NCBI GenBank assembly: GCA_963715985.1
Contig: CAVQSP010000014.1
Coordinates: 64,001-128,000 of the forward strand
Source: an uncultured Thermoleophilia bacterium
GTDB lineage: Bacteria; Actinomycetota; Thermoleophilia; UBA2241
Length of the DNA: 64,000 bases
Direction of reading: 5' to 3'
Positions 33,497 to 47,791 of the stretch are shown here, piece by piece. Both the position numbers and the translations under genes were made by a program. Position 1 is the first letter of the stretch, and each line of letters begins with the position of its first letter. Under the pieces are notes generated by a model, which was given only the letters and a program-made list of their open reading frames with translations, was not told where the DNA came from and did no database searches.

Positions 33497-34441
33497 GTGA
33501 GCGTCCGGCTCTTCTTCGCCACGGACGTCCATGGCTCGGAGGTCTGCTGGCGCAAGTTCATCAACTCCGCCAAGCACTACGGCGCCAACGTCCTGATCCT
33601 GGGCGGCGACATGACCGGCAAGGCGGTCATCCCCATCATCGACAACGGGGGCGGCACCTACACGTTCCACATGCAGGACATCCGCCACGATCTCCAGGGC
33701 GCCGAGGCGCTGGCGGCCAATCGCGCGCGATCAGGATCACGGCTACTACCCCGTGGTCATGACGGCCGAGGAGGGGACCGAGTTCACCAGCGACCCCGAC
33801 AAGCTCGAGGAGCTCTTCCACGATCGATGCGCCAGCACTGTCAAGGACTGGGTCGCGTGGGCCGACGAGCGTCTCGAGGGCAGCGGCATGCGTGCATCGT
33901 CTGCCCCGGCAACGACGACCGACCCGACATCGACGGGCTGCTCGCCACGTCATCGCAGATCGAGGTGGGCGAGGGCAACATCGTCGACCTGCCGGACGGG
34001 ATACCAGCTGGCCTCCAGCGGCTACACGAACCTCACGCCCTGGGACACCCGCGGGAAGAGGACGACGGACAAGCTCAAGGCGCGCATCAGGGCATCGTCG
34101 CGCAGGCCACGGCGAGTCCCGAGCATCTGGTGATGGGCCTGCACGCGCCGCCGTACGACACGCAGCTCGACGTGGCGCCGAAGATCGACTGGGAGACGCT
34201 CACGGTGCAGGGCCAGGACTCCGCCCACGTGGGCTCCACCGCCGTCAAGGAGGTGATCGAGCAGGTCCAGCCCATCCTCTCGCTGCACGGGCACATCCAC
34301 GAGAGTCGCGCCGCCATCCGCATCGGGCGCACGCTGGCCGTCAATCCGGGGAGCTCGTACGTCGAGGGCACGCTCTCCGGGTGCGTCATCGAACTCGACG
34401 GCAAGAAGAAGATCAAGCGCTACAGGCTGACCAGCGGGTGA
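33497..34441 (+). CDS. Icc-like metallophosphoesterase (paralog 2); several compensating frameshifts
   Basis: ATDVHGS, GGDMTGK, PGNDD, HAPPYDT, LHGHIHES, NPGSSY. Confidence 0.85.
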   Translation: MSVRLFFATDVHGSEVCWRKFINSAKHYGANVLILGGDMTGKAVIPIIDNGGGTYTFHMQDIRHDLQGAEALAANRARSGSRLLPRGHDGRGGDRVHQRPRQARGALPRSMRQHCQGLGRVGRRASRGQRHACIVCPGNDDRPDIDGLLATSSQIEVGEGNIVDLPDGIPAGLQRLHEPHALGHPREEDDGQAQGAHQGIVAQATASPEHLVMGLHAPPYDTQLDVAPKIDWETLTVQGQDSAHVGSTAVKEVIEQVQPILSLHGHIHESRAAIRIGRTLAVNPGSSYVEGTLSGCVIELDGKKKIKRYRLTSG

Positions 34442-34519: not shown

Positions 34520-36159
34520 ATGGCGACAAATAAGCCCGCCGAACAGACGCTGTTCGTGCGAAAGGCCAGTGGTCTGGTCAAGGGCTGGTCGACTGGGGAC
34601 GGGTTCCGCTACTCGTTCTTCTCGACGAACATGTTCTTGGGGATCTGGGGCTTCCCTACGCCGTGTTCATCCCCGGCGGCAGCGTGTTCTGGCTGCCATC
34701 ATGATCTGTACCTTCGTGATTTCGAATTGTGGTGTACCGGGCCTGATCTCGGCGATGCCACGAGCAGGCGGTGACTACGTGTGGCAGTCACGCATGTTCC
34801 ACAGCTCGGTCGGCTTCGTGTTGGGGCCACCGGCTGGTGGTTCATCCTCTGGCTGTGGATCCCGATCTACGCCGCCCTGGGCGTGAACTCGTTCATCGAG
34901 CCCGATCCTGCGCATCGTCGGCGCGGACGGCGCCGCCGATTGGCTCGCTCACCAAGAACGGCGTCTTCGTCGCCTCGCTGGCGACGATCGCCCTTGCCGA
35001 CCTACCTCGTCGCCATCGGCATGAAGGCCTACGCCAAGTTCCAGAAGTGGGCCCTCTGGATCGGCCTTGGCGGGCTGCGCGGTGGCGGCCATCCTGCTGC
35101 TCGTGACCTCGAAGGCCAGCTTCATCGAGTCGTTCAACCGCGAGATGCTCGACCTGTACGGCGCCAAGGACGCGTACAGGCCACGCGTCGAGAGCGCCGG
35201 CGAGGGCATGCCGTCGTCCATGTTCGCCGGCAACGTCTGAGGACACGTTCAAGCTCATCCCGTTCATGGCCTTCTGGCTCCTGTGGCCGGTGTGGGGCGC
35301 CACGCTGTACGGCGAGGTCCGCGGCGCCAAGGACTTCCGCAAGAACATCTACCAGATGGCCGGCGGCCTCCTGGCGGCTGGTCGCCATCGTCATCGTCTT
35401 CCTGATCCTCGTGACGAAGACGATGGGCTGGACACTTCTTCGAGGCCACCGCCAACGGCTACATGGGTTCCCTGTACGCGTACATCGACCCCGCGACGCT
35501 GCCGGCCGGCAGCGACTACCTCTCGCCGACGGCGATGATCTCCTGGATCGTCGAGCAACAACGCCTTCCAGGTCGTCCTCATCGCGGTGATATCGCTGCT
35601 GGTGTTCGGCTGGTGGGGCACCGTGTTCCTCTCGTCGACGCGCATGATCTTCGCCTCGGCCTTCGACCGCATCCTGCCGGAGCGCGTCGCGAGGGTGACG
35701 TCGGGCGGCGTGCCGGTCAACGCGCTGCTGCTCATGGCGATCCCGTCGGTCATCGTCTCCGCCTTCTACGCCTACCAGCCCTCGTTCGTGCAGCTCACCT
35801 ACGACGCCACGCTGGTGATCGCCGTCATGTTCTTCGTCACAGGTCTCGCCTTCATGGTGATGCCGTGGCGCGCCAAGTCGATCTGGGACAACTCGGCGAT
35901 TCCCAAGATGAAGATCGCCGGCATCCCGATCCTGGCGATCGCAGCGCTCATCTACGCGATCTTCATGGGGTTCAACCTCTGGCTCTGGTTCTACGACAAG
36001 ACCAACACCTACGGCATCGGCTACAAGAACAAGAACTCCATGATCTTCATGGGCATCCTGTACGTCGCCGCCATCGTGATCTGGATCGTCGCCTGGGCCG
36101 TGCGCAAGCGCCAGGGCATGGAGCTCGAGGCTGTGGCCAAGGAGATCCCGGTCGAGTGA
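34520..36159 (+). CDS. APC-family amine permease, paralog of 17022-18658; many frameshifts
   Basis: FVRKASGLVK, AMPRAGGDYVWQSR, YGEVRGA, AFDRILP, C-terminal KEIPVE. Confidence 0.8.
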
Positions 36160-36262
36160 TCGCCGCAGGCGGATCACCGTCGCGAGGTGACGGAGTCGCT
36201 GAGCGACAATGACTCGTCGAACAGGGGAACGATCGCGAGATTGATTCAGCAGACGCAGGCGC

Positions 36263-36297
36263 CGGCGGCGGCCCGGTGATCTTCCGGGCCGCCGCCG
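36263..36297 (+). terminator. Strong hairpin between permease and mtbB
   Basis: cggcggcggcccgg-tgatctt-ccgggccgccgccg. Confidence 0.55.
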
Positions 36298-36405
36298 TCT
36301 CTGCTCCCGAGTGGGCGTCGCGAAGATGCAGGCGCTCCGCATGAGATCCTCGTGGAGAGGAGCGTTCTACGTGACAACGCCGACGGCAGAGGAGGCCGCG
36401 CTTTC

Positions 36406-37806
36406 ATGAAGATCCTCACAAGAATGGGTGACAGCTCGAACGTCGAGCTGACACGCGACGAGCTGCGCCAGGAGTTCATCGAGGGCTCCGAGCTCGCCGC
36501 GAAGAAGGCCAAGATCCCCGTCCTCACCGAGAACGAGATCGACTACCTCGTCGACATGTTCGCGGCGCCCACGCGTATCTGGGGCGTGCAGCGCGGTAAC
36601 GAGGTCGTCATGACCAAGGACGGCTGCGTCAACGCCCTCAACTCCTCGCGCATGTCGAGCGGCGTGGTCGCTCCTGTCAACCGCGAGGTGGGCGTGCGCC
36701 TCTTCGAGTCGATGCTCGGCTTCGACTCCATGGAGGTCGCGCACAACGACTACTCCGTGAAGCCGCAGCGCTTCCTCAAGGCGCTCGAGCAGCTCCACAT
36801 GGAGATCCTCCAGGAAGTCACCATCTTCCCGCTGTTCTACGGCTTCATGCCCAACCTGGGCCTGTACTACCGGCCGGACGGCTCGTTCGAGAACCCATCG
36901 GACCTCATGCCGCTGGGCAAGATCCCGGAGGCGCGCCGCACGCAGGAAGAAGCGCTCGAGAAGTGCATGGAAGACTGCATGGAGATGAGCGACTGCATGC
37001 TCGAGATGGGCGCCGACGGCATCGACTACGACACCACCGCATCCACCGGCGACGCCGAGTTCCTGGCCGTGCTCAAGACCACCGAGCACGTGGCCGGCGA
37101 GACGGGTCTGCCCGTCGAGGTCGGCATGTCGGCCGAGATGGTGCTCGGCTTCCACGGCGAGCTGGAGTACAACGGCAAGCGGCTCGCCGGCATGTGGCCG
37201 CACCAGCAGCTGCAGGTCTGCGAGGAGGCCGGCGTCGCCATCTTCGGCCCGGTCAGCAACACCAACACCAGGAAGACCGTGCCGTGGAACCTCGCCCGCG
37301 CCCTCACCTTCGTGAAGGCCTGCACCGAGATCGCCAAGATCCCGGTGCACCCCAACGTCGGCATGGGCGTCGGCGGCGTGCCGATGTTCGAGACCCCCGC
37401 CGTCGACGTCGTGACCCGCTGCAGCGCGGCCATGATCGAGATCGGCCACGCCGACGGGTTGTAGGTCGGTACGGGCGACCCAGCCGGCATGCACATGGCG
37501 CATCTGCTGGCCTCGTCGATGGGTGGCATCCGGGCTACCGGAGATCTGGTGGCCCGCATGCAGCTCCAGAAGATGAGGATCCACGAAGCCAAGAAGTACG
37601 TGGCCGACAAGTTGCACGTGACGCCGCTCGACCTGTCCGATCCGACGATGATGCGAGGGCTCAGGGAAGAGCTCGACATCGGCGTTGTGACCGGCGTCCC
37701 GGGCGTCGCCAAGGGCATGGCCGCCAAGGTGCGCATCGCCGAGCTCCTCGACATCGAGATCAACAGCGTGGAGCAGTTCAAGAAGAAGACCGGTCTGCAC
37801 ATGTGA
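36406..37806 (+). CDS. mtbB: Dimethylamine:corrinoid methyltransferase MtbB with in-frame amber (pyrrolysine) codon 353 at 37462-37464; 466 aa
   Basis: [49 protein letters not shown], then ADGL-TAG-VGTGDP (Methanosarcina VDGI-O-IGVGDP), continuing in frame through [12 protein letters not shown] and LREELDIG to TGA; AGAGGAGG RBS. Confidence 0.93.
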
Positions 37807-37818
37807 GCCGGCGGCTGG

Positions 37819-37892
37819 CGGCCGCGGCCTTCGGGTCGCGGCCGTCCGGCTCCAGCAGATCACGAGCCCCGGCCGCCTGAGGCGGTCGGGGC
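37819..37892 (+). terminator. Two hairpins after mtbB (first with cUUCGg loop)
   Basis: cggccgcggcc-ttcg-ggtcgcggccg; gccccggccgcc-tga-ggcggtcggggc. Confidence 0.6.
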
Positions 37893-37909
37893 CCGTTGGC
37901 TTCTGACGC

Positions 37910-38031
37910 GCGCCCCTTGGGCGCGGGGCTTCCGCCGGGTGCGTGCGCCCCTTGGGCGCGGGGCCTCCGCCGGGTGCGTGCGCCCCTTGGGCGCGGGGCC
38001 TCTCGCCGGGTGCATGCGCCCCTTGGGCGCG
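37910..38031. repeat. About 3.5 tandem copies of a 35-36 nt palindrome-containing unit
   Basis: gcgccccttgggcgcggggcYtccgccgggtgcRt at 37910, 37945, 37980, partial at 38016. Confidence 0.9.
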
Positions 38032-38171
38032 CAGCGCGCCTCGACCGCCTCGCCTGCCCCGACCGCCGCCGCTCAGTCTCGCGCCCGTGTGTCCGCGGGC
38101 ATGTTCCGATCCGCGCTTTCAACTGGGCGTACGTTTGGACGTGTGGTTGCCTGAAACCGTCGTCGGGAACA

Positions 38172-38210
38172 TGCCGGCGCCTGCCGGCGCCTGCCGGCGC
38201 CTGCCGGCGG
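38172..38210. repeat. 10-nt tandem repeat, about 4 copies
   Basis: (tgccggcgcc)x3 + tgccggcgg. Confidence 0.85.
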
Positions 38211-38290
38211 CATCTCGCGCTGAGCGTGCCGTCGGCTGCCAGGGGCGGCCGCGAACGGCGTGCGCCTGCCGGCGCCGAGGCGTGGAAGCC

Positions 38291-39217
38291 TCACACGGCC
38301 TTGAGCCACTCCTCGTAGTCGCGGTGGGCGGCGTTGGCCTGCATGCGGTGGATGCGGTCCATGCCGTACCCGTAGAAGTCGAAGTCGAGCTTGGAGAGCG
38401 TGGCCTGGATCATCGCCCAGATGCTCCACCAGAGGTCGGCGACCAGCTTGTGGAGCATCATGCGCGCGTAGCGGTGCTCGTCCATGCCGCCGCAGTAGGC
38501 GGTGAGCACGGCCGTCTCCTCGTCCTCGGTGAGCGGGGTCTCCACGCAGAAGTCGCCGAGGTCGAAGTACGGGTCGCACATGCCGCCGTACTCCCAGTCG
38601 ATGATCCACATCTTGCCGTCCGGGGCGAGGATGAAGTTCTCGCTGAGCAGGTCGTTGTGACACGCCGTGAAGGCCGGCTGGTCGCGCTTCATCGCTTCTT
38701 CGATGCGCGCGCCCTGCTCGAGCATCCAGTCGGTCTCCTCGGGCCGCGGGGCGCCCACGTCCTGCGCCATGCTCAGGTACTGGCGGATCATGTCGAAGAC
38801 GTGGATCTCGTTGTCGAACACCGCCTTGTCGTGATACGTGCGCATGGCGGCGACGATCTTCTCCAGGCGGTCGGGGTGGCCGGCGATGCTCTCGGGGTGC
38901 ATGGTCTCGCCGGCGATGAACGGGACCACCGTGCAGTCGCCGGGCTGGATGACGTGCAGGAGCGGCGGCGTGACGCCGGCCGCCGCCGCCGCCCGGTGGT
39001 TGTTGAGCTCGCGGGTGCGGTCGATGAAGGTCTCGGTGCCCTCGCCGGGGATGCGCAGCACGAACTTGCCGGCGCCCGGGCTGCCGTCGGCGCCGTCGAC
39101 GGTCACCACGTAGTTGCGGTTGGTGATCCCGCCGCCGAGCTCCTCACAGACGATCTCCCTGCCCTGCCACTCGCCGATCCTCGCGATGACGTCATCGACG
39201 CTGATGCGCTCTGCCAT
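38291..39217 (-). CDS. Choline/ethanolamine kinase-family phosphotransferase
   Basis: LGGGITNRNY, VLRIPG, IDR..E, CHNDLLSENF, IIDWEY, DPYFDLG. Confidence 0.88.
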   Translation of the reverse strand: MAERISVDDVIARIGEWQGREIVCEELGGGITNRNYVVTVDGADGSPGAGKFVLRIPGEGTETFIDRTRELNNHRAAAAAGVTPPLLHVIQPGDCTVVPFIAGETMHPESIAGHPDRLEKIVAAMRTYHDKAVFDNEIHVFDMIRQYLSMAQDVGAPRPEETDWMLEQGARIEEAMKRDQPAFTACHNDLLSENFILAPDGKMWIIDWEYGGMCDPYFDLGDFCVETPLTEDEETAVLTAYCGGMDEHRYARMMLHKLVADLWWSIWAMIQATLSKLDFDFYGYGMDRIHRMQANAAHRDYEEWLKAV

Positions 39218-39338
39218 GTGTCTTCCTCACTCTGGTGTGTACGACTGCGACGAAACGGCCGGGGCCCTCGCGCTCTGGGGGGAGCATACGCGAGGGGCCC
39301 CGGCCGCGTCAGGGGGGACTGCGATCAGTGGACCCGTG

Positions 39339-40721
39339 TCAGAGGGCCGGGACCTCGAAGCCCATCCCGGCGAGGTCGGCGCGGACGTCGTCCATCGCCT
39401 TCTGGTACTCGCTGTTCACGATGGCCTTCGTCTTGGGGTCGTAGACCTCCTGGAAGGTCATGCCCTTGTCCGGGTCCTTCAGCTTGTCGCCGAAGAGCGG
39501 GAAGATCTTCTGGGCGATCGGCTCCGCCTCGGCGCGCGTGAGCTTGGCCGCCGCGAGGCCCATCTCGGCGTGGAACTTGTGGTCGTCCGGCACCAGCGAG
39601 TCGGACTGCACGGCCATGGCCGGGTGCCCGGAGAAGACGTTGCCGCCGGAGGTGACGATGGCGAGCAGGTAGCAGGCCATCTCGTAGTGGTACTGCTTGG
39701 TGCCCGAGCCGCCGCCCAGGTACGGCAGGTTGACCATCGGGTAGCCCATGTTGCGGCCGATGGCGGCGTTGCTCATGGCGATGGCCCAGATGAGCGGCTT
39801 GGTGGACGAGAGGTGCAGCTTGCTGTGCAGCGGCGCGTTGTAGTGGTAGGTGCCGCGGAAGACCAGGTTGCCCATGATCATGTAGGCCGTGGCGGTGACG
39901 GCCACGCCCTCGGCGCCGCCCGCGTACCCGCCGAAGAGCGGGGTGGAGGTGGAGCCGATGTTGGCGCTGATGCTGTTGTAGAAGGCCACCTTCTGCAGCG
40001 CCTCGTACCCGACGACCATCTCGGAGAGGAAGTCGATGAGGAAGCCGTCGCTCGGGCGCAGGCCGAAGTCCGGGTAGCTGGCCGCGAACATCGAGGCCGG
40101 CTGAGAGGCGGCGGAGATGCCGTTGATGATCGGGAGGCCTGAGCGGCCGGAGCGGCGGATGCCCTCACGCGCGAGACGCACCGTCTTGCAGGCGGCGAGG
40201 ATCTCCTGCGGCGAGCGCACGCGGGAGTCCTTGCCGCGCAGGTGCAGGATGCTGGGCACGCTCACCGAGTCGACGATGTTGAAGGACGCCATCTTCTCGA
40301 CGGTGTCCATGAACACTTGTTCGTCGGTGGTGTAGATGCCGCCGCCCACGTGCACCCACGGGCGGTCGTCAGTGGTGTCCGGGCGCCGCCCGTACATGGT
40401 CTTGCGCTCGCGGCCCTCGCCGAAGGTGGCGCCGTTGGGGGCCTGCGAGCAGGCGAGCAGGATCTCGTCGCGCGTGAACTGCATCACGCGGTTGGTCTCC
40501 GGGCAATACGCCCCGGCCTCGGCGATGAGGTCCACGGCCGCCTGGAAGACGCGGTCGGTGAGGTCGTCGTCGGTGTTGATGATGGTCGCCTTGTCCCACT
40601 TGACCGCGTGGCGCGCGATCACCTCGGCGAGGGTGGGCACGTAGCGCTTCATGTAGTAGTCGGTCTCGGACGTGAGCGGACCGGTCTCTGCGCGGTCGAA
40701 CACCTCGATCAGGTCGATCAT
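39339..40721 (-). CDS. Monomethylamine methyltransferase (MtmB) family protein, non-pyrrolysine
   Basis: FDRAETGP, DDDLTDRVFQAA, YCPETNRV, SP.EILA, FGGYAGGAEG, GMTFQEVYD; 460 aa with no amber. Confidence 0.88.
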   Translation of the reverse strand: MIDLIEVFDRAETGPLTSETDYYMKRYVPTLAEVIARHAVKWDKATIINTDDDLTDRVFQAAVDLIAEAGAYCPETNRVMQFTRDEILLACSQAPNGATFGEGRERKTMYGRRPDTTDDRPWVHVGGGIYTTDEQVFMDTVEKMASFNIVDSVSVPSILHLRGKDSRVRSPQEILAACKTVRLAREGIRRSGRSGLPIINGISAASQPASMFAASYPDFGLRPSDGFLIDFLSEMVVGYEALQKVAFYNSISANIGSTSTPLFGGYAGGAEGVAVTATAYMIMGNLVFRGTYHYNAPLHSKLHLSSTKPLIWAIAMSNAAIGRNMGYPMVNLPYLGGGSGTKQYHYEMACYLLAIVTSGGNVFSGHPAMAVQSDSLVPDDHKFHAEMGLAAAKLTRAEAEPIAQKIFPLFGDKLKDPDKGMTFQEVYDPKTKAIVNSEYQKAMDDVRADLAGMGFEVPAL

Positions 40722-40769: not shown

Positions 40770-41417
40770 TCAGGAGACCAGCTTGCTGGCGAGGGTGACC
40801 GCATCGTAGGCGTTGGCGGCCCAGCCGTCGGCGCCGATGGATGCGGCCCACTCCTCGGTCGTGGCACCGCCACCGACCATGACCTTGTACTTGTCGCGCG
40901 TGCCCTGGTCCTTGAGTGCGTCGATGACGTCACGCTGACCGATGAGCGTGGTGGTGAGCAGCGCCGACATGGCGATGATGTCGGCGCCGACCTCGTTGGC
41001 CTTGTCGACGAACTTGAACAGGTCCACGTCGATGCCGAGATCGTGGACCTCGTAGCCCGACGTCTCGAAGAGCAGCTTGAGGATGTTCTTGCCGATCGAG
41101 TGCAGGTCGCCCTTGACGGTGCCCAGCACCACGATGCCCTTCTTGGGGCCGCTGCCGCCGGCTTCCTTGATCAGCGGCTCGAGAACGCCCATCGCCGCCT
41201 GGAAGGCGAGCGCCGACTGCATCAGCTCGGGCAGGAAGATCTCCTCGTCCTCGAACTGCTGGCCGATGACGTTCAGGCCGGGCAGCAGGCCCTGGTCGAT
41301 GATCTCCTGCGCGCTCATGCCGTCGGCGAGCGCCTTGTCGACGGACTCGAGCACGGCGTCCTGGTCCTGGTCGACGACGGCCTGCTTCAGCTGGTCATGC
41401 ATCGCTTCGTTTCCCAT
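40770..41417 (-). CDS. Corrinoid protein (MtmC/MttC-like)
   Basis: EIFLPELMQSA, GTVKGDLHSIGK, SALLTTT, MVGGG. Confidence 0.93.
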   Translation of the reverse strand: MGNEAMHDQLKQAVVDQDQDAVLESVDKALADGMSAQEIIDQGLLPGLNVIGQQFEDEEIFLPELMQSALAFQAAMGVLEPLIKEAGGSGPKKGIVVLGTVKGDLHSIGKNILKLLFETSGYEVHDLGIDVDLFKFVDKANEVGADIIAMSALLTTTLIGQRDVIDALKDQGTRDKYKVMVGGGATTEEWAASIGADGWAANAYDAVTLASKLVS

Positions 41418-41477: not shown

Positions 41478-42932
41478 CTACGCAGTGACCTCGGTGTCGG
41501 TCCACACGGCGTCGCCGGCCACGAGGCCGGGGAACTCCGCGCGGATGCGCTCGTCCAGTTCGGCCTCCCACACGGCCGGGTTGGGCTGGGACAGGATGCC
41601 GCGGGCCACGGCGCGCGCGCGGCTCTGGGCGTCCGGCTTGCCGGCCGCCTCCCACTGCGCGCGCATGCCGCGGTCGGCGACCTTGGGGAAGAGCGCCGTG
41701 GTCTTCATCAGCGACTTGGTGTGGCGGCTCTTCATGTAGTCGCCGCCGGGGCCCACTTCGGCGATGACATCCAGGGCGAGGTTCTCCTCGCTGTAGTCCA
41801 GGCCGCGGACGACGCGCTTGTTCATCAGCGCGATCTCGTCGTCCACCACGGCCTTGCCGAAGTCGAAGGCCATGAGAGAGCTGAACAGGCCGCCCATGTT
41901 GAGCAGCGTCGCGCCGGCCAGCACCGAGGCCATCGTGTTCATGCCGGTCTCGTAGCCGGACTGGGCGTCGTTGCTGTGCGCGTTGGTGAGGCCGATGTAG
42001 CCACCCGTGGGCACGTGGTAGAAGTGCCCGAGCTGGGCCTGCGCCATGAAGAGGACGCCGCTCTCGATGGCGCCGGGCGCGTAGGCGCCGCTGCGCATAT
42101 CGGCGACGGTGGGCAGGCTGGCGTAGATCAGCGGCGTGCCCTCCTTGACCATCTGCTGGAACACGGAGATGGCGAGGAACTCGGCGTTGCCGACCACAAG
42201 GGTGCCCATGAGGGTCATCGGCGAGGTGAGGCCGGCGTTGGGCACCACGGTGGTGTACACCGGCAGGCCCTCGCCGGTGAGGTACATGACGGCCTCGGTG
42301 GAGTCCACGTCCATCGTGAGCGGGCTCACCATCGGGCAGTAGTGATGGTTGATGCAGGGGCGCTCGCGGTAGGCGTCCTTGCCGCCGGCGATGAGCTCGC
42401 CGAGCTTGAGGACCTGGTGCAGGTCGTCCATGTTGGGCGTGTTGCTGCGTACCGGCTTCAGGCAGTTCTTGAGAGCCGGGTAGAAGCGGCTCAGGCTGAA
42501 CTGCCCGACGGGGGCGTCGTCGGCCAGCGTGGAGATGGAGAAGATGTCGAAGCCCTTGAGCTCGTTGATGAGGTGGGCGATGTTGGCGATGTCGGTGGAC
42601 GTGGCGCGCCGTTCGACGCCGGTGACCGGGTCCACCACGTTGGGCGCGGAGCTGCCGGTGACGACCACGGGGCCGCCGTCGGGGATGGTGCGGTCGAACT
42701 GCGGGTCGCGGCCGCGGAACGTGAAGCGCGGCGGCACGGCCCGCATGTAGCGGTCGACGATCTCCGGCGAGAACTTGACGAGGCCCTCGTCCGATACGGT
42801 GCAGCCGTGGGCCTTGAAGACGTCGCGTGCCTTTGGGTGGTGCGCGAGAATGCCCACGTTCTCGAGCACCCAGAGCGACGCCTCGTGGACGCGTGCCACC
42901 TGCTCTGTGGTGAGCAACTCTGCGTACTTCAT
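41478..42932 (-). CDS. MttB/MtgB superfamily methyltransferase, non-pyrrolysine
   Basis: VHEASLWVLENVG, VSPL, AGLTSPMTLMGT, DMRSG, GLTNAHSNDAQSGYE (Leu at Pyl site), VGPGGDY. Confidence 0.9.
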   Translation of the reverse strand: MKYAELLTTEQVARVHEASLWVLENVGILAHHPKARDVFKAHGCTVSDEGLVKFSPEIVDRYMRAVPPRFTFRGRDPQFDRTIPDGGPVVVTGSSAPNVVDPVTGVERRATSTDIANIAHLINELKGFDIFSISTLADDAPVGQFSLSRFYPALKNCLKPVRSNTPNMDDLHQVLKLGELIAGGKDAYRERPCINHHYCPMVSPLTMDVDSTEAVMYLTGEGLPVYTTVVPNAGLTSPMTLMGTLVVGNAEFLAISVFQQMVKEGTPLIYASLPTVADMRSGAYAPGAIESGVLFMAQAQLGHFYHVPTGGYIGLTNAHSNDAQSGYETGMNTMASVLAGATLLNMGGLFSSLMAFDFGKAVVDDEIALMNKRVVRGLDYSEENLALDVIAEVGPGGDYMKSRHTKSLMKTTALFPKVADRGMRAQWEAAGKPDAQSRARAVARGILSQPNPAVWEAELDERIRAEFPGLVAGDAVWTDTEVTA

Positions 42933-43119
42933 GCGGACCCGGTCCTCCCTTGAGGGCGCCGGCGGGCGAGCGACCCACTCGCCAGAGTGCCGGCGGCTTG
43001 TGGCCGGCGCCCGGGGGTCCTGTGCGGACCTCTCCGGCTCACGCCGAGCCCCATCTCTGACGGCATATCGCGATCCGGCCTCGCACGGCCGGCTTGTGGT
43101 CCGTGTGAGCGGGTCACGG

Positions 43120-43902
43120 TCATGCGGAGACCACCCGCAGGCCGCGGCGCAGCATCTCGTCGCGCACGTCCTCGTCCACGTCGTCGACGACGACCGTCTG
43201 CACGTCGTCGAGGCCGCAGATGACGAAGTCGCCCACGGCGCCGAGCTTGCTGCGGTCGGCGAGCACGATGACCTCGCCGCGCGTCTGGCGGATCATGGCG
43301 CGCTCCACGCCGGCGAGGCCGATGCTCGCCGTGGTCACGCCCTCCTCGAGGCTGAGGCCGTCCGCTCCGAGGATGAACCGCGAGGCGTGGAAGCTGCCCA
43401 CGGCCTCGATGGCCATGGGCCCCTCGAGGGTGTTGCTGTGCGGCCGGAAGACGCCGCCGAGCAGGATGACCTCGAGCGCCGAGTCCTGCGCGGACGTGAG
43501 CGCGCCCACGTTGTGGGTGACGATGCGCGCGTGGACCTGCGTGTCGACGTGCGCGAGCACCTGGGTCGCGGTGGTGCCGGACCCCAGGAACACGGTCTCG
43601 CCGGGGAGGATCATGGCCGCGGCGGCGCGGGCGATGCGGTCCTTCTCGGCCGTGTGGGTGCGCACGTTGGTCACGTAGCGGGGCTCCTCCACGATGTGCT
43701 GCTTCAGGATAGCGCCGCCGTGGGTGCGCGAGAGGAGTCCGTCGTTTTCGAGCCGCTCGAGGTCGCGGCGGATGGTCATCTCCGAGACGCCGAGGACCTC
43801 GCTGAGGGACGAGACGCGCACGCCGCGTTGCTGGGCGAGGATCTCAAGGATCCGCCCCTGGCGCTCGGCGGGAAACATCTCGCGCGTGTCGGGCGCTGAC
43901 AC
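43120..43902 (-). CDS. DeoR/GlpR-family regulator (paralog 3)
   Basis: GVSEMTIRRDL, RTHGGA, EKDRIA, GSGTT, LADRSK; closely similar to 16047-16841. Confidence 0.92.
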   Translation of the reverse strand: MSAPDTREMFPAERQGRILEILAQQRGVRVSSLSEVLGVSEMTIRRDLERLENDGLLSRTHGGAILKQHIVEEPRYVTNVRTHTAEKDRIARAAAAMILPGETVFLGSGTTATQVLAHVDTQVHARIVTHNVGALTSAQDSALEVILLGGVFRPHSNTLEGPMAIEAVGSFHASRFILGADGLSLEEGVTTASIGLAGVERAMIRQTRGEVIVLADRSKLGAVGDFVICGLDDVQTVVVDDVDEDVRDEMLRRGLRVVSA

Positions 43903-43962
43903 CGCTCCCCCATGGCTGTGAAGTGTTGCCAGAATCGCTCAGATTCGAACGTAGTCTCTCGC

Positions 43963-44171: not shown

Positions 44172-45191
44172 TCAATAGTCCGCGTCGGCCGCCTTTGTCT
44201 TGCCCCAGAACGTCTTGTACACGAGCGCCGTGTACACGAGCACGATGGGGCAGAAGATGAGCGCCACGATGAGCATCACCAGCAGCGTCAGGTGACCCGA
44301 CGAAGCGTTGGTCACCGTGAGGCTGGTCTCTGGCGGCGTGCCGCGCGCCGGCACCATGTCGGGGAAGTTGCCCACGGCGGCGATGCCGGCCAGCCCGATG
44401 ATGATGACGGCCGAGCCGAGGAACGACTTGAGCTCGCCGCCTTCCTTCATCATCTGCCAGGCCGTGTACAGCACGCCGAGGAGGAAGATGACGAGGAACA
44501 GCCAGCCGGCCGGCCGGCCGAACACGTTGTCCGACGCGCGCGAGACCCAGAGGATCGTCGCCAGGGACGTGGCCACGGCCAGCACGGCGCACACCACGAA
44601 GCTCAGGCGCCGCCACTTGAGGGCGCGCTCGTGCAGCTCGCCCTCCGACTTGACGGCCAGCCAGGCCGCGCCGTGCTGTGCGATGAGACACAGCCCGGTC
44701 ACGCCGACCAGTAGCGAGTACGGGTTCAGCAGCTCCCAGAAGGTGCCGATGTAGTTGCCCTGCGCGTCCATGGGCACGCCGCGGATGACGTTGCCGAGGG
44801 CGACGCCGACCAGGAGAGCAGGCACCAGGCTGCCGAGGAAGAAGGCGCCGTCCCACACTCTGGCCCAGCTCGAGTCGCGGTGGCGGAACTCGAGCGACAC
44901 CGCGCGCAGGATCAGGCCGAAGAGCACGAGCATGATGGCCAGGTAGAACCCACTGAAGGTCATGGCATAGATCATGGGGAAGGCGGCGAAGATGGCGCCG
45001 GCGCCGGTGATGAGCCACACCTCGTTGCCGTCCCAGATGGGGCCGATCGAAGCACGGATGACGGAGCGGTCGGCTTCGCTGCGCCCGAGGAAGGGGTACA
45101 GCACGCCGGCGCCCAGGTCGAAGCCGTCGAGGATCACGTAGCCGGTGAGCAGGAACGCGACGAGGAAGAACCAGATGTTGGCCAGGGTCAT
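44172..45191 (-). CDS. cydB: Cytochrome bd ubiquinol oxidase subunit II
   Basis: YVILDGFDLGAG, PIWDGNEVWLI, FAAFP, LILRAVSLEFR. Confidence 0.95.
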   Translation of the reverse strand: MTLANIWFFLVAFLLTGYVILDGFDLGAGVLYPFLGRSEADRSVIRASIGPIWDGNEVWLITGAGAIFAAFPMIYAMTFSGFYLAIMLVLFGLILRAVSLEFRHRDSSWARVWDGAFFLGSLVPALLVGVALGNVIRGVPMDAQGNYIGTFWELLNPYSLLVGVTGLCLIAQHGAAWLAVKSEGELHERALKWRRLSFVVCAVLAVATSLATILWVSRASDNVFGRPAGWLFLVIFLLGVLYTAWQMMKEGGELKSFLGSAVIIIGLAGIAAVGNFPDMVPARGTPPETSLTVTNASSGHLTLLVMLIVALIFCPIVLVYTALVYKTFWGKTKAADADY

Positions 45192-45195
45192 CTCG

Positions 45196-46569
45196 TCACC
45201 TCCCCGCACCGGCGGGAGCGGGCGCCACGCCCTTCTCCGCCTTGAGCATCTCGGCGACGTCCTCGGGACCCTTGCGGATGATGCCGACGAAGATCCGCAG
45301 CCAGGCGACGAAGAGCACCAGGTAGATCAGGCCGAAGAGGCCCAGCGTCGTCCAGATCTCACCCGTGGAGACGAGTGGCGAGACGGCGTCCGTGGTGCGC
45401 ATGAGACCCTGGACGACCCAGGGCTGGCGTCCGACCTCCGCCGCCATCCAGCCCATGTTGATGGCGAACTCAGCCAGCGGGATGCAGATGATCAACAGCC
45501 ACAGCAGCCAGCGCGCGTTCTCCAGCTTCTTGAAGATGTACATGAGCACGGAGACCAGGAAGACCAGCCCGAAGAAGATGCCCAGGGCGATCATGATGTG
45601 GTAGCTCTGGAAGACGGCCGGGATGGGTGGCCGGTCGGCGGCCGGCACTTCCGTGTAGCCCTGGACCGTAGCGTCGGGGTTGAGATGCAGGATCATGCTG
45701 AGGCCGTTGGGGATGCCGACGCCGTGCGTGTCGTAGGTGCCGTCGGCCTCTTTCGAGAGCCAGCCGAACAGCCACAGCGTGGCGCCGTCCTCGGTGTCGG
45801 TGACGTTCTCGAAGGCGGCCATCTTGACCGGCTGCTTCTCGGCCACCACCAGCGCGCCCCAGTGGCCGAGCAGAGGCATGGCGATGGAGATCACGAGACC
45901 CACGCCGAGCGCCCAGATGATGGTCTTCCGGGCGAAGTCAACGTGCTTCTTCTTGAGCAGGTAGTAGGCGCACACACCGGCGGCCACGAAGCAGCCCGTG
46001 ATGAGGGCCGCGGCGATGGTGTGGAAGTAGCGCGGCCCGATGGACGGGTTGAGCGCCGCTCCCCAGAAGCTCGTGAGGATGGCCTTGCCGTTCTCCACCT
46101 TGTAGCCGGCCGGCGTCTGCATCCAGGAGTTGGCGATGAGGATCCAGAGGGCGGAGAGGAGGGAGCCGATCCACACCAGCCACGCGGAGATGTAGTAGAA
46201 GCGCTTGGAGACCTTCCTGCGACCGAAGAGCAACACGCCGAGGAAGGTGGACTCGAGGAAGAAGGCGATGAGGCCTTCGGCCGCGAGCGGCGCTCCGAAG
46301 ATGTTGCCGACGAAGCGCGAGTAGTTGGCCCAGTTCGTGCCGAAGGCGAACTCCATGGTCAGGCCGGTGGCGACGCCGATGGCGAAGGTCGCCGTGAACA
46401 GCTTGATCCAGAAGTTCGAAGCTGCCTTGTCGGCGGGGATGCCGCTCTTGTAGTAGCGGCGCTCCGCGAGGACCACCATCATCCCGACCCCGATGCTGAT
46501 GGGCACGAAGATGAAGTGGTAGCCGACGGTGAACGCGAACTGGATGCGGGCGAGCATTACGGCATCCAT
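45196..46569 (-). CDS. cydA: Cytochrome bd ubiquinol oxidase subunit I (short Q-loop)
   Basis: RIQFAFTVGYHFIF, EFAFGTNW, AFFLES, ANSWMQTP, QPVKMAAFE, EVGRQPW. Confidence 0.96.
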   Translation of the reverse strand: MDAVMLARIQFAFTVGYHFIFVPISIGVGMMVVLAERRYYKSGIPADKAASNFWIKLFTATFAIGVATGLTMEFAFGTNWANYSRFVGNIFGAPLAAEGLIAFFLESTFLGVLLFGRRKVSKRFYYISAWLVWIGSLLSALWILIANSWMQTPAGYKVENGKAILTSFWGAALNPSIGPRYFHTIAAALITGCFVAAGVCAYYLLKKKHVDFARKTIIWALGVGLVISIAMPLLGHWGALVVAEKQPVKMAAFENVTDTEDGATLWLFGWLSKEADGTYDTHGVGIPNGLSMILHLNPDATVQGYTEVPAADRPPIPAVFQSYHIMIALGIFFGLVFLVSVLMYIFKKLENARWLLWLLIICIPLAEFAINMGWMAAEVGRQPWVVQGLMRTTDAVSPLVSTGEIWTTLGLFGLIYLVLFVAWLRIFVGIIRKGPEDVAEMLKAEKGVAPAPAGAGR

Positions 46570-46653
46570 GCCTCTCCGACACCTCCTTGATACGCGACCT
46601 CCCGCGGCGGGTCTCGATCCCCGTGCACTCGCCGCGGCACTGCGCGGCTATTT

Positions 46654-47431: not shown

Positions 47432-47791
47432 GGGGGCGAACAGGTCTCGACATGGGCTGTACCGCGGTGGGAGCAGCAGGCCGAGGTCCGGTGGCCTCGT
47501 TAAACTGCCGGAACACACTACTTGCCGAGAATAACTCTCTCGCACTCGCTGCCTAATTAGTTAGGCAACGCATCGCGCCCGGCTCGCCCATGGCCGGGAT
47601 CCGCGGTGTCATCTAGTGGGCTGGGGTGCGGTCGCTCTGCTCCGGGCGAGCGCATCCGAGACTGATCGGGGCTGGCGACCGGCACCCCTGCCGACGCGGG
47701 GGCCGCGAGCGAGACTAATGCGACGGCTAAGCCTGTAGAGACTCCGCCGAGGCGTCCGTGGACGCGGGTTCGATTCCCGCCGCCTCCACCA
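47432..47791 (+). ncRNA. ssrA: tmRNA, tag peptide (A)ENNSLALAA
   Basis: 5' GGGGGCG pairs with CGCCUCC-ACCA including G3:U; T-arm GCGGGTTCGATTCCCGC; tag ORF 47524-47556 ends ALAA-TAA. Confidence 0.96.

Follow-up and report, generated by a model that had tools for sequence, protein, structure and literature searches.

An mtbB gene with an in-frame amber codon and the pyrrolysine genes of its Thermoleophilia host

Does a TAG inside a conserved reading frame end the gene, or is it read as an amino acid? This question is raised by a 64,000-nucleotide stretch of DNA from an uncultured Thermoleophilia bacterium (assembly GCA_963715985.1, contig CAVQSP010000014.1, positions 64,001 to 128,000; henceforth the window), in which the frame of mtbB, encoding a dimethylamine-type corrinoid methyltransferase (36406..37806, + strand), contains one such codon. 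An earlier note on this DNA, made from its letters, had proposed that the TAG is decoded as pyrrolysine (Pyl). Judged by sequence comparison, the TAG almost certainly encodes this 22nd amino acid. We place at roughly 92% the probability of the complete reading, in which 36406..37806 is one functional gene, mtbB, whose UAG is decoded as Pyl by means of the organism's own Pyl system.

A single mtbB frame across the TAG

The gene is a single frame of 466 codons on the + strand, running from an ATG at 36406 to a TGA ending at 37806, with one TAG (37462..37464) as codon 353. A mechanical list of open reading frames (ORFs) holds the part up to the TAG as 36352..37464, a 370-aa product with a GTG start. 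The likely start is the ATG at 36406, which stands 10 bases downstream of the Shine-Dalgarno sequence AGGAGG (36390..36395, +); orthologues likewise open with MKILTRMGD. The TAG and the TGA at 37804..37806 share one frame, and the extension past the TAG amounts to 113 codons. The earlier note had described the ORF ending at the TAG, the 113 further codons, a joined product of 466 residues with the amber at codon 353 and a second half with no evident ribosome-binding site, and the sequence agrees on each count. The peptides that it quoted, LREELDIG among them, are present in the readthrough translation, and inspection of the sequence before the internal ATG at 37489 reveals no purine-rich Shine-Dalgarno stretch. 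A promoter and terminator consensus scan of 36100-38300 returned no sites.

An open frame behind a stop carries little information in a genome of 70% GC: at least 60 codons remain open past the stop in 219 of 443 TAG-ended and in 830 of 1689 TGA-ended coding-like ORFs. The extension is thus not above chance, and the case rests on other evidence. As a genome-wide detector of Pyl genes, the open frame behind TAG was rejected, because half of all ORFs qualify whichever stop they carry. The coding-type pattern nevertheless goes on past the TAG, with GC contents at the three codon positions of 0.65/0.38/0.88 after it vs 0.63/0.42/0.92 before.

The readthrough protein is a full-length member of the MtbB family, as had been supposed. 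Pfam PF09505 (Dimeth_Pyl) matches it with 608.2 bits over residues 5-461 (profile positions 5-463 of 463), and the NCBIfam equivalog TIGR02368 with 498.4 bits against a cut-off of 369.1 (profile 7-465 of 466), both alignments passing across the TAG. An AlphaFold model made with 31 sequences (predicted local distance difference test, pLDDT, 91.2; predicted template modelling score, pTM, 0.92) places residue 353 within a beta strand formed by residues 351-354. In a structural comparison of this predicted model, its TIM barrel comes closest to barrels of cobalamin-dependent methyltransferases (Z 16-18), the best matches being the homocysteine (Hcy) and folate barrels of methionine synthase, a Methanosarcina corrinoid methyltransferase and BHMT, with Z of 17-18.3; other, unrelated TIM barrels rank next at Z 14-15. 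A sequence search of the PDB with the protein gave no match, there being no solved MtbB structure, and Foldseek against the PDB returned generic TIM barrels only (TM scores of 0.3-0.38). MtmB and MttB appear neither in the Foldseek list nor in the Z-ranked one, which is uninformative either way.

The TAG is conserved both within the genome and among relatives. The genome holds 11 mtbB loci, eight of them whole and three cut by frame shifts, and each has exactly one TAG, in an identical alignment column and within the motif D-G-[LF]-TAG-[VAM]-G-x-G-D; the paralogues share 45-64% identity with the window copy. A scan of species-representative genomes yielded 605 relatives, and in an alignment of the window copy with the best 78 of these 605 loci, TAG occupies the column in 79 of 79 rows. 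It lies in the frame of the match in 75 rows (74 of the 78 public ones), and in the other four it stands behind an upstream frame-shifting indel, with D-G-L-TAG-V-G-T-G-D-P retained in the shifted frame. The column is also invariant in a further alignment of 31 sequences (A2). No row has TGA or TAA in this position, though TGA makes up 77% of the genome's stops. The earlier note had named relaxed selection in the 3' segment as a finding that would speak against it; among 21 orthologues of 84-90% identity, no such relaxation is seen, the median ratio of nonsynonymous to synonymous substitution (dN/dS) being 0.187 3' of the TAG vs 0.218 5' of it.

Public sequencing runs add some information on the site. 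Contigs of two wetland DNA runs differ from the assembly by C>G at 37467, at least 34 letters from the contig ends, so that the contigs of both runs span the TAG; among the differences listed none falls at 37462-37464, which lends weak support to the codon. The best public DNA runs hold only 0.33-0.46 of the sampled words and therefore represent relatives and not the same strain. Contigs from the RNA library of one wetland run cover 36406-36529, 36606-36938 and 37120-37270 with 90-95% likeness, presence in an RNA library being no proof of transcription; none of them lies over the TAG, and no cover was seen at 37850-38117.

That a sense codon was turned into the TAG by faulty sequencing or assembly has negligible probability, for although the assembly does hold errors, these are indels, as had been pointed out before. 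The same TAG recurs in 78 independent public assemblies and in ten other loci of the genome, and no difference is listed at the site in contigs of the two other runs spanning it. A more usual interpretation would be a split gene or pseudogene, with the TAG as an ordinary stop or a nonsense mutation and a product of 352 residues, accompanied or not by one of 105 residues from the ATG at 37489. Gene callers do adopt it: the 120 best database proteins are all 270-356 aa long, cover 54-76% of the query and end at the TAG, exactly as the earlier note had expected of standard annotation, and TAG is a common stop in this genome. The interpretation is already contradicted and hardly credible, given a TAG that is invariant in all rows and all 11 paralogues and never replaced by TGA or TAA, a frame kept across it in all of them, purifying selection on the 3' part, the lack of a Shine-Dalgarno sequence before 37489 and family profiles that require both parts.

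Pyrrolysine genes, ambiguous UAG and the host lineage

If the TAG is a Pyl codon, the genome should also encode the means to make and insert pyrrolysine, and we found these genes in it. They lie about 555 kb into another contig of the same genome (C13; the locus is termed L008 below) in the order pylB-pylC-pylD-pylT. After about 1 kb comes pylSn, and roughly 3 kb beyond it, past a B12/radical-SAM gene, the opposite strand carries pylSc. PylSc scores 316 bits with TIGR02367 (cut-off 178), PylSn, encoded by a separate gene, 124.6 bits with TIGR03912 (cut-off 51), PylC 317.9 bits with TIGR03909 (cut-off 248.3) and PylD 199.5 bits with TIGR03911 (cut-off 150.05). ARAGORN calls tRNA-Pyl (cta) at L008 10126-10198, equivalent to C13:555126-555198; the fold of this pylT is a compact cloverleaf, in which the D loop has 5 bases and a single base separates the acceptor stem from the D stem. 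An Rfam search of the pyl cluster misses the tRNA called by ARAGORN. The search for pylT, pylS and pylBCD that the earlier note had suggested therefore found pylT, pylSn, pylSc, pylC and pylD, together with pylB in two pieces. Two further observations concern this cluster. pylD (L008 9249-10055) itself ends in TAG, and readthrough would extend this enzyme of Pyl biosynthesis; and a TACAAT at L008 10110-10115, 11 bases before pylT, may give the tRNA gene a promoter of its own behind pylD.

The state of pylB bears on whether the system works in this strain. Its two pieces score 304.8 and 126.4 bits (cut-off 348.2); what separates them is a single additional base near L008 7671 that three aligned congeners do not have. 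The gene is intact in four of five congeners, the fifth being broken at another position. Of 37 metagenome loci starting at the same residue, 35 keep an unbroken frame, one runs off its contig and one is shifted. The extra base is likely an assembly error, since it is absent from the relatives examined and the assembly has other single-base shifts. One could instead suppose that the shift is real, that the strain's Pyl system is broken and that its TAG-bearing genes are recent relics ending at the TAG; frame shifts also affect three mtbB loci out of 11, as well as the permease gene adjoining the window copy. We consider this very improbable. Single-base shifts occur at differing places in differing assemblies, one congener's pylB being broken elsewhere, and in the permease region contigs from public runs are without bases that the assembly has in excess, a pattern that belongs to assembly indels; in addition, the 23 TAG-bearing methyltransferase genes of the genome are otherwise intact or conserved, and dN/dS after the TAG is low. 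The single-base shifts observed lie in the permease gene (34520-36156), in pylB (L008 ~7671) and in the mtbB loci C9:155858-157215, C10:580-1930 and C14:693414-694782, and the contigs of other runs are without the assembly's bases at 35379 and 35434. Scattered in this way, they form the pattern of assembly indel errors, which would also depress the completeness estimate of the genome bin.

How widely is UAG used as a Pyl codon? Besides the 11 mtbB genes, ten mttB and two mtmB genes have a TAG at their own conserved column, which gives the 23 TAG-bearing methyltransferase genes. At the same time, release factor RF1 is present in the genome and TAG ends 443 of 2202 coding-like ORFs (~20%), pylD among them. 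With RF1 present and TAG as the stop of about one-fifth of the genes, UAG is ambiguous and not reassigned, a situation that PMC1976440 and PMC2933860 describe for other bacteria. The earlier claim that the organism decodes UAG as Pyl does not hold in so simple a form.

From these components a probable course of events can be outlined. The mtbB mRNA would be translated through the UAG at codon 353 by pyrrolysyl-tRNA with the anticodon CUA, this tRNA-Pyl being charged by the split PylSn and PylSc with pyrrolysine made by PylB, PylC and PylD. Insertion at the UAG would compete with termination, and a conserved mRNA element behind the codon (PYLIS_2) may aid it. The TIM-barrel product would carry pyrrolysine on a barrel strand and take a methyl group from dimethylamine or a closely related compound, placing it on a corrinoid protein in the Co(I) state, from which a pterin-binding methyltransferase would pass it on, probably to tetrahydrofolate; a RamA-type activase would keep the corrinoid reduced. 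The genome encodes two RamA-type activases, one with a gene for a pterin-binding protein beside it, and we infer that these fit a bacterial route of the methyl group to a pterin. A search for the MtrH family (PF02007) at E 1e-10 gave no hit in the genome, the bin being 88.8% complete.

The host is an actinobacterium, as had been surmised; RpoB, the nearest orthologues and the MtbB tree agree on this, and all 22 contigs have a GC content of 69-71%. The 23 closest mtbB orthologues (82-90% identity) occur in metagenome-assembled genomes (MAGs) titled Thermoleophilia, Actinomycetota or Actinomycetes. RpoB shares 94% and 93% identity with its counterparts in two of these MAGs and 83-93% with the pieces in the isolate bog_752; the figures are 74% for another Thermoleophilia MAG and, for two pieces in a Thermincola MAG, 70% and 50%. 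In a quick maximum-likelihood tree of 81 MtbB rows, from which five were left out (one partial and four frame-shifted), the window protein falls in a group of 22 rows with a support of 100, 21 of them from Actinomycetota; this group is nested in one of 52 rows, 48 of them from Actinomycetota. In the same tree, MtbB from two short contigs (L073 and L084) of the Deltaproteobacteria bacterium isolate MAG248 sits on very short branches inside Thermoleophilia groups, for which mis-binning is more likely than recent transfer. Of 36 other genomes in the genus, 33 have PylSc, vs one of 24 sampled from other genera of the class. Judged by gene presence, the Pyl trait is a property of the genus.

Neighbouring genes and the substrate

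If the enzyme is real, which amine does it demethylate? The window copy lies in a distinctive neighbourhood. Upstream are a metallophosphoesterase-like gene (33497..34441, +), with a weak match to Pfam Metallophos_3 (23.5 bits) and 61% identity to a neighbour in the public locus L056, where the order is the same, and, directly before mtbB, an APC-type permease gene (34520..36156, +), in which Pfam AA_permease matches the C-terminal half only. The permease gene is frame-shifted in the assembly: tblastn with the intact 547-aa orthologue of L056 recovers it in two frames, and public-run contigs differ from it by 1-base indels at 34824-35553.

Downstream, five genes are on the - strand. A choline/ethanolamine-kinase-family phosphotransferase (38294..39226, -) matches PF01633 with 110 bits and PF01636 with 68.5 bits, its best NCBIfam match, GntI, being below the cut-off. 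It is followed by an MtmB-family homologue without an in-frame TAG (39339..40721, -), which matches PF05369 over its full length with 225 bits and has no internal stop, and by a corrinoid (B12-binding) protein with PF02310 and PF02607 (40770..41417, -). The latter is a candidate methyl acceptor and scores 230.6 bits with the MtgC model (cut-off 310) and 207.1 with that of MtbC (cut-off 350). Beyond it lie an MttB-superfamily homologue (41481..43292, -; PF06253, 288.8 bits), again without an in-frame TAG and with no internal stops at C14:105541-106941, and a DeoR-family regulator (43123..43938, -) with PF00455 and PF08220, for which NCBIfam models of the GlpR/AgaR type stay below their cut-offs.

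Several features of these genes merit mention in their own right. The MttB-like gene stops at a TAG (41478-41480), and its frame stays open into the corrinoid gene, whose start is at 41417; Pyl readthrough of this TAG would give an MttB-corrinoid fusion, but the arrangement could be due to chance, being expected of one frame in three across a short GC-rich spacer. The genome has 89 MttB-family matches, most without TAG and many of them fragments, a very large expansion for a 4.35-Mb bin. MtmB-family loci number five without an in-frame TAG and two with one, and the window's MtmB-like copy (39339-40721) is more conserved in relatives than the adjoining mtbB; no function is known to us for MtmB homologues that lack Pyl, no search having been aimed at this question. 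About 300 bases past the methyltransferase cluster are genes for cytochrome bd oxidase subunits I and II (44175-46647, -), which hint at an organism able to tolerate, or to use, low oxygen tensions during corrinoid methyl transfer. Further on lies a tmRNA gene (47432-47791, +) with the tag peptide AENNSLALAA.

Parts of this neighbourhood recur in relatives. Among the 23 closest loci, 14 have a permease homologue upstream of the mtbB orthologue, and of the nine without one, five lack an upstream flank; a kinase-family homologue is linked to mtbB in 14, the MtmB-like gene (89-94% identity) occurs in nine and the corrinoid protein in nine. In several of these loci, the neighbour genes sit upstream of mtbB on the same strand. 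Such conservation of gene context hints that this mtbB paralogue serves a particular compound, without naming which.

An alternative substrate deserves more weight than the alternatives considered above for the TAG. The protein could be a genuine Pyl enzyme acting on another secondary or tertiary amine, for example an N-methylated compound of the ethanolamine type, which the adjacent permease would import and which the kinase, the phosphoesterase, the non-Pyl MtmB-like enzyme and the corrinoid protein would handle. The 11 mtbB paralogues, at 45-64% identity to the window copy, fall in separate deep clades; permease and kinase-family genes are each kept in 14 of the 23 closest loci, and the MtmB-like and corrinoid genes in nine each; and in L056 kinase, phosphoesterase, permease and mtbB follow one another in order on one strand. 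On the other side, the score of the protein exceeds the cut-off of the NCBIfam equivalog model for the dimethylamine enzyme, no family model matches the kinase above its cut-off, the neighbourhood alone names no substrate, and the permease is absent from four of the 18 loci that have an upstream flank. We take another substrate seriously as a tentative possibility without favouring it.

Against the reading that we prefer, a functional mtbB whose UAG is decoded by the organism's own Pyl system, several points have to be set. Pyl insertion in the mtbB product is predicted here from genes, and the link between the position of Pyl and a characterised enzyme runs solely by way of the Rfam model and the family profiles. 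In the assembly pylB is frame-shifted, and a real shift would leave the strain unable to produce pyrrolysine. Completeness of the genome bin is 88.8% and contamination 7.3%. The gene of the closest corrinoid protein lies 3 kb off on the other strand, and its product scores below the MtbC cut-off. Finally, dimethylamine as the substrate is an assumption from the family name, the gene being one of 11 deeply diverged paralogues and lying in a conserved kinase-phosphoesterase-permease cluster.

The RNA element behind the UAG and known systems

Does the mRNA itself mark this UAG for pyrrolysine? Rfam model RF02509, PYLIS_2 (pyrrolysine insertion sequence mtbB), matches 37462..37561 (+) with 63.2 bits (gathering score 36, E 1.9e-14); the alignment starts at the TAG and runs without gaps over model positions 1-100 of 100. 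The consensus of the model, UAG AUA GGU GUC GGC GAC CC, translates as O-I-G-V-G-D-P, where the window has O-V-G-T-G-D-P, and equals the methanogen string that the earlier note had given. The match ties the TAG to the Pyl codon of the mtbB family, as far as homology of this stretch can do so; as the model was built on coding sequence, it is not independent of the protein homology.

Of the two helices of the model, helix 1 has six non-standard pairs in the window and helix 2 is intact. The latter is a 7-bp stem with a 4-base loop (37535..37552, +) over the codons A-T-G-D-L-V-A. Consensus folding energy along the gene had pointed to the region behind the TAG; this region is also the most conserved one, and the folding energy was therefore used only as a lead to a covariation test. 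In an alignment of 57 sequences (A3), 99.5% of the cells of helix 2 are paired, a level attained by 0 of 500 shuffles (87.7 +/- 1.0), and the covariation score is 0.355 vs 0.105 (likewise 0 of 500); a control with slid partners gave 20-56% pairing. Two of the pairs fall at synonymous third positions and show four and three further pair types, respectively. The Gly codon of the helix is GGA in all 85 mtbB genes examined, compared with 4.7% of Gly codons genome-wide, and the Asp codon is GAT in 73 of 85, compared with 7.9% in the genome. The loop is invariant and dictates the rare codon GGA, and compensatory changes at synonymous third positions are seen not only among members of a single shallow orthologue group but also between several phyla; these features would speak for selection acting on the RNA itself. 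As the structure was derived from the same alignment and the sequences are related, these controls overstate the case somewhat.

It is conceivable that helix 2, 24-30 codons past the UAG, is a working cis signal that tips the UAG towards Pyl in bacteria where UAG still ends about one-fifth of the genes, and that the 11 paralogues, with this one locked to a permease-kinase-phosphoesterase cluster, may divide methylated amines among themselves. We offer this combined proposal as a speculation that is more probably wrong than right by a wide measure. In the passages considered here, PMC3639795 describes a 'relatively canonical' structure behind the mtbB UAG, PMC1976440 reports bacterial Pyl genes without one common structure, and the review PMC8211752 states that a cis element is not required and doubts its role in decoding. 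If true, a cis signal in helix 2 would go against the prevailing view, in which the mRNA context plays no necessary part. The conserved helix behind the UAG gives experiments a way to ask how bacteria distinguish a Pyl UAG from a stop codon.

The trait itself is not new to the phylum. Pyl-encoding mtbB and mttB genes as well as PylRS genes are already known from Actinobacteria: according to the portions of these papers covered here, Pyl-encoding mttB and mtbB are among the genes expressed by some Actinobacteriota MAGs from a mire on thawing permafrost (PMC10805028), and PylRS genes occur in two Actinobacteria, bacterial PylSn and PylSc always being separate genes (PMC9630628). The novelty implied by the earlier note was thus overstated, and the finding leaves existing knowledge unchanged. 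In the literature on pyrrolysine in Thermoleophilia and Actinobacteria, supplements lying outside its scope, our search found no detailed treatment of the system in this class. What the locus provides is a clean case, open to checking, of an expanded genetic code in an actinobacterial lineage of soils and wetlands, with a full Pyl system that appears near-universal in the genus (33 of 36 genomes) and a very high number of paralogues. Since all 120 of the best database proteins end at the TAG, this mtbB and its 22 sister genes are hidden from routine inference of methylamine turnover, a process that competes with methylotrophic methanogenesis in wetlands.

How does the system compare with those already described? 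The window protein resembles MtbB1-3 of Methanosarcina barkeri in its full-length profile match above cut-off, its similar length and its single in-frame UAG in the G-x-G-D-P context of the Rfam mtbB consensus. It differs in its bacterial host of 70% GC, the comparison having been made via profiles and not by direct alignment with the archaeal proteins. The MtbB isozymes of that methanogen are near-identical, whereas the paralogues here are 11 in number and deeply diverged. The methyl group, too, would probably pass to a pterin and not to coenzyme M. For the methanogen enzymes, the part of PMC2933860 used here reports a conserved amber codon and the mass of Pyl at that position. Relative to the Rfam PYLIS_2 model, the window element is alike in its full-length match from the UAG and its intact helix 2, and unlike in its poorly paired helix 1.

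The closest parallels are bacterial. The mire MAGs of PMC10805028 belong to the same phylum and have the same kinds of genes, and the 'Actinomycetota bacterium isolate bog_752' (locus L057) has an 86% identical orthologue of the window mtbB, including the TAG. The main text of that paper, as far as covered, states expression only and does not describe pyl genes, paralogue expansion or neighbourhood. The split synthetase, PylSn and PylSc, is shared with Desulfitobacterium, Acetohalobium, Thermincola and the delta1 symbiont of Olavius, and a Thermincola MAG (L095) has an MtbB that is 54% identical and likewise carries the TAG. Also shared with other bacterial pyl systems, as presented in the relevant sections of PMC2933860 and PMC1976440, are the retention of UAG as a frequent stop and the confinement of Pyl to methylamine methyltransferases. 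The gene order is different, with pylB-pylC-pylD-pylT, pylSn and an opposite-strand pylSc here vs the order pylScBCDSn given as typical of Gram-positive bacteria in the cited part of PMC2933860. So is the scale, the 23 TAG-bearing methyltransferase genes of this genome comparing with eight counted for the delta1 symbiont in the cited part of PMC1976440.

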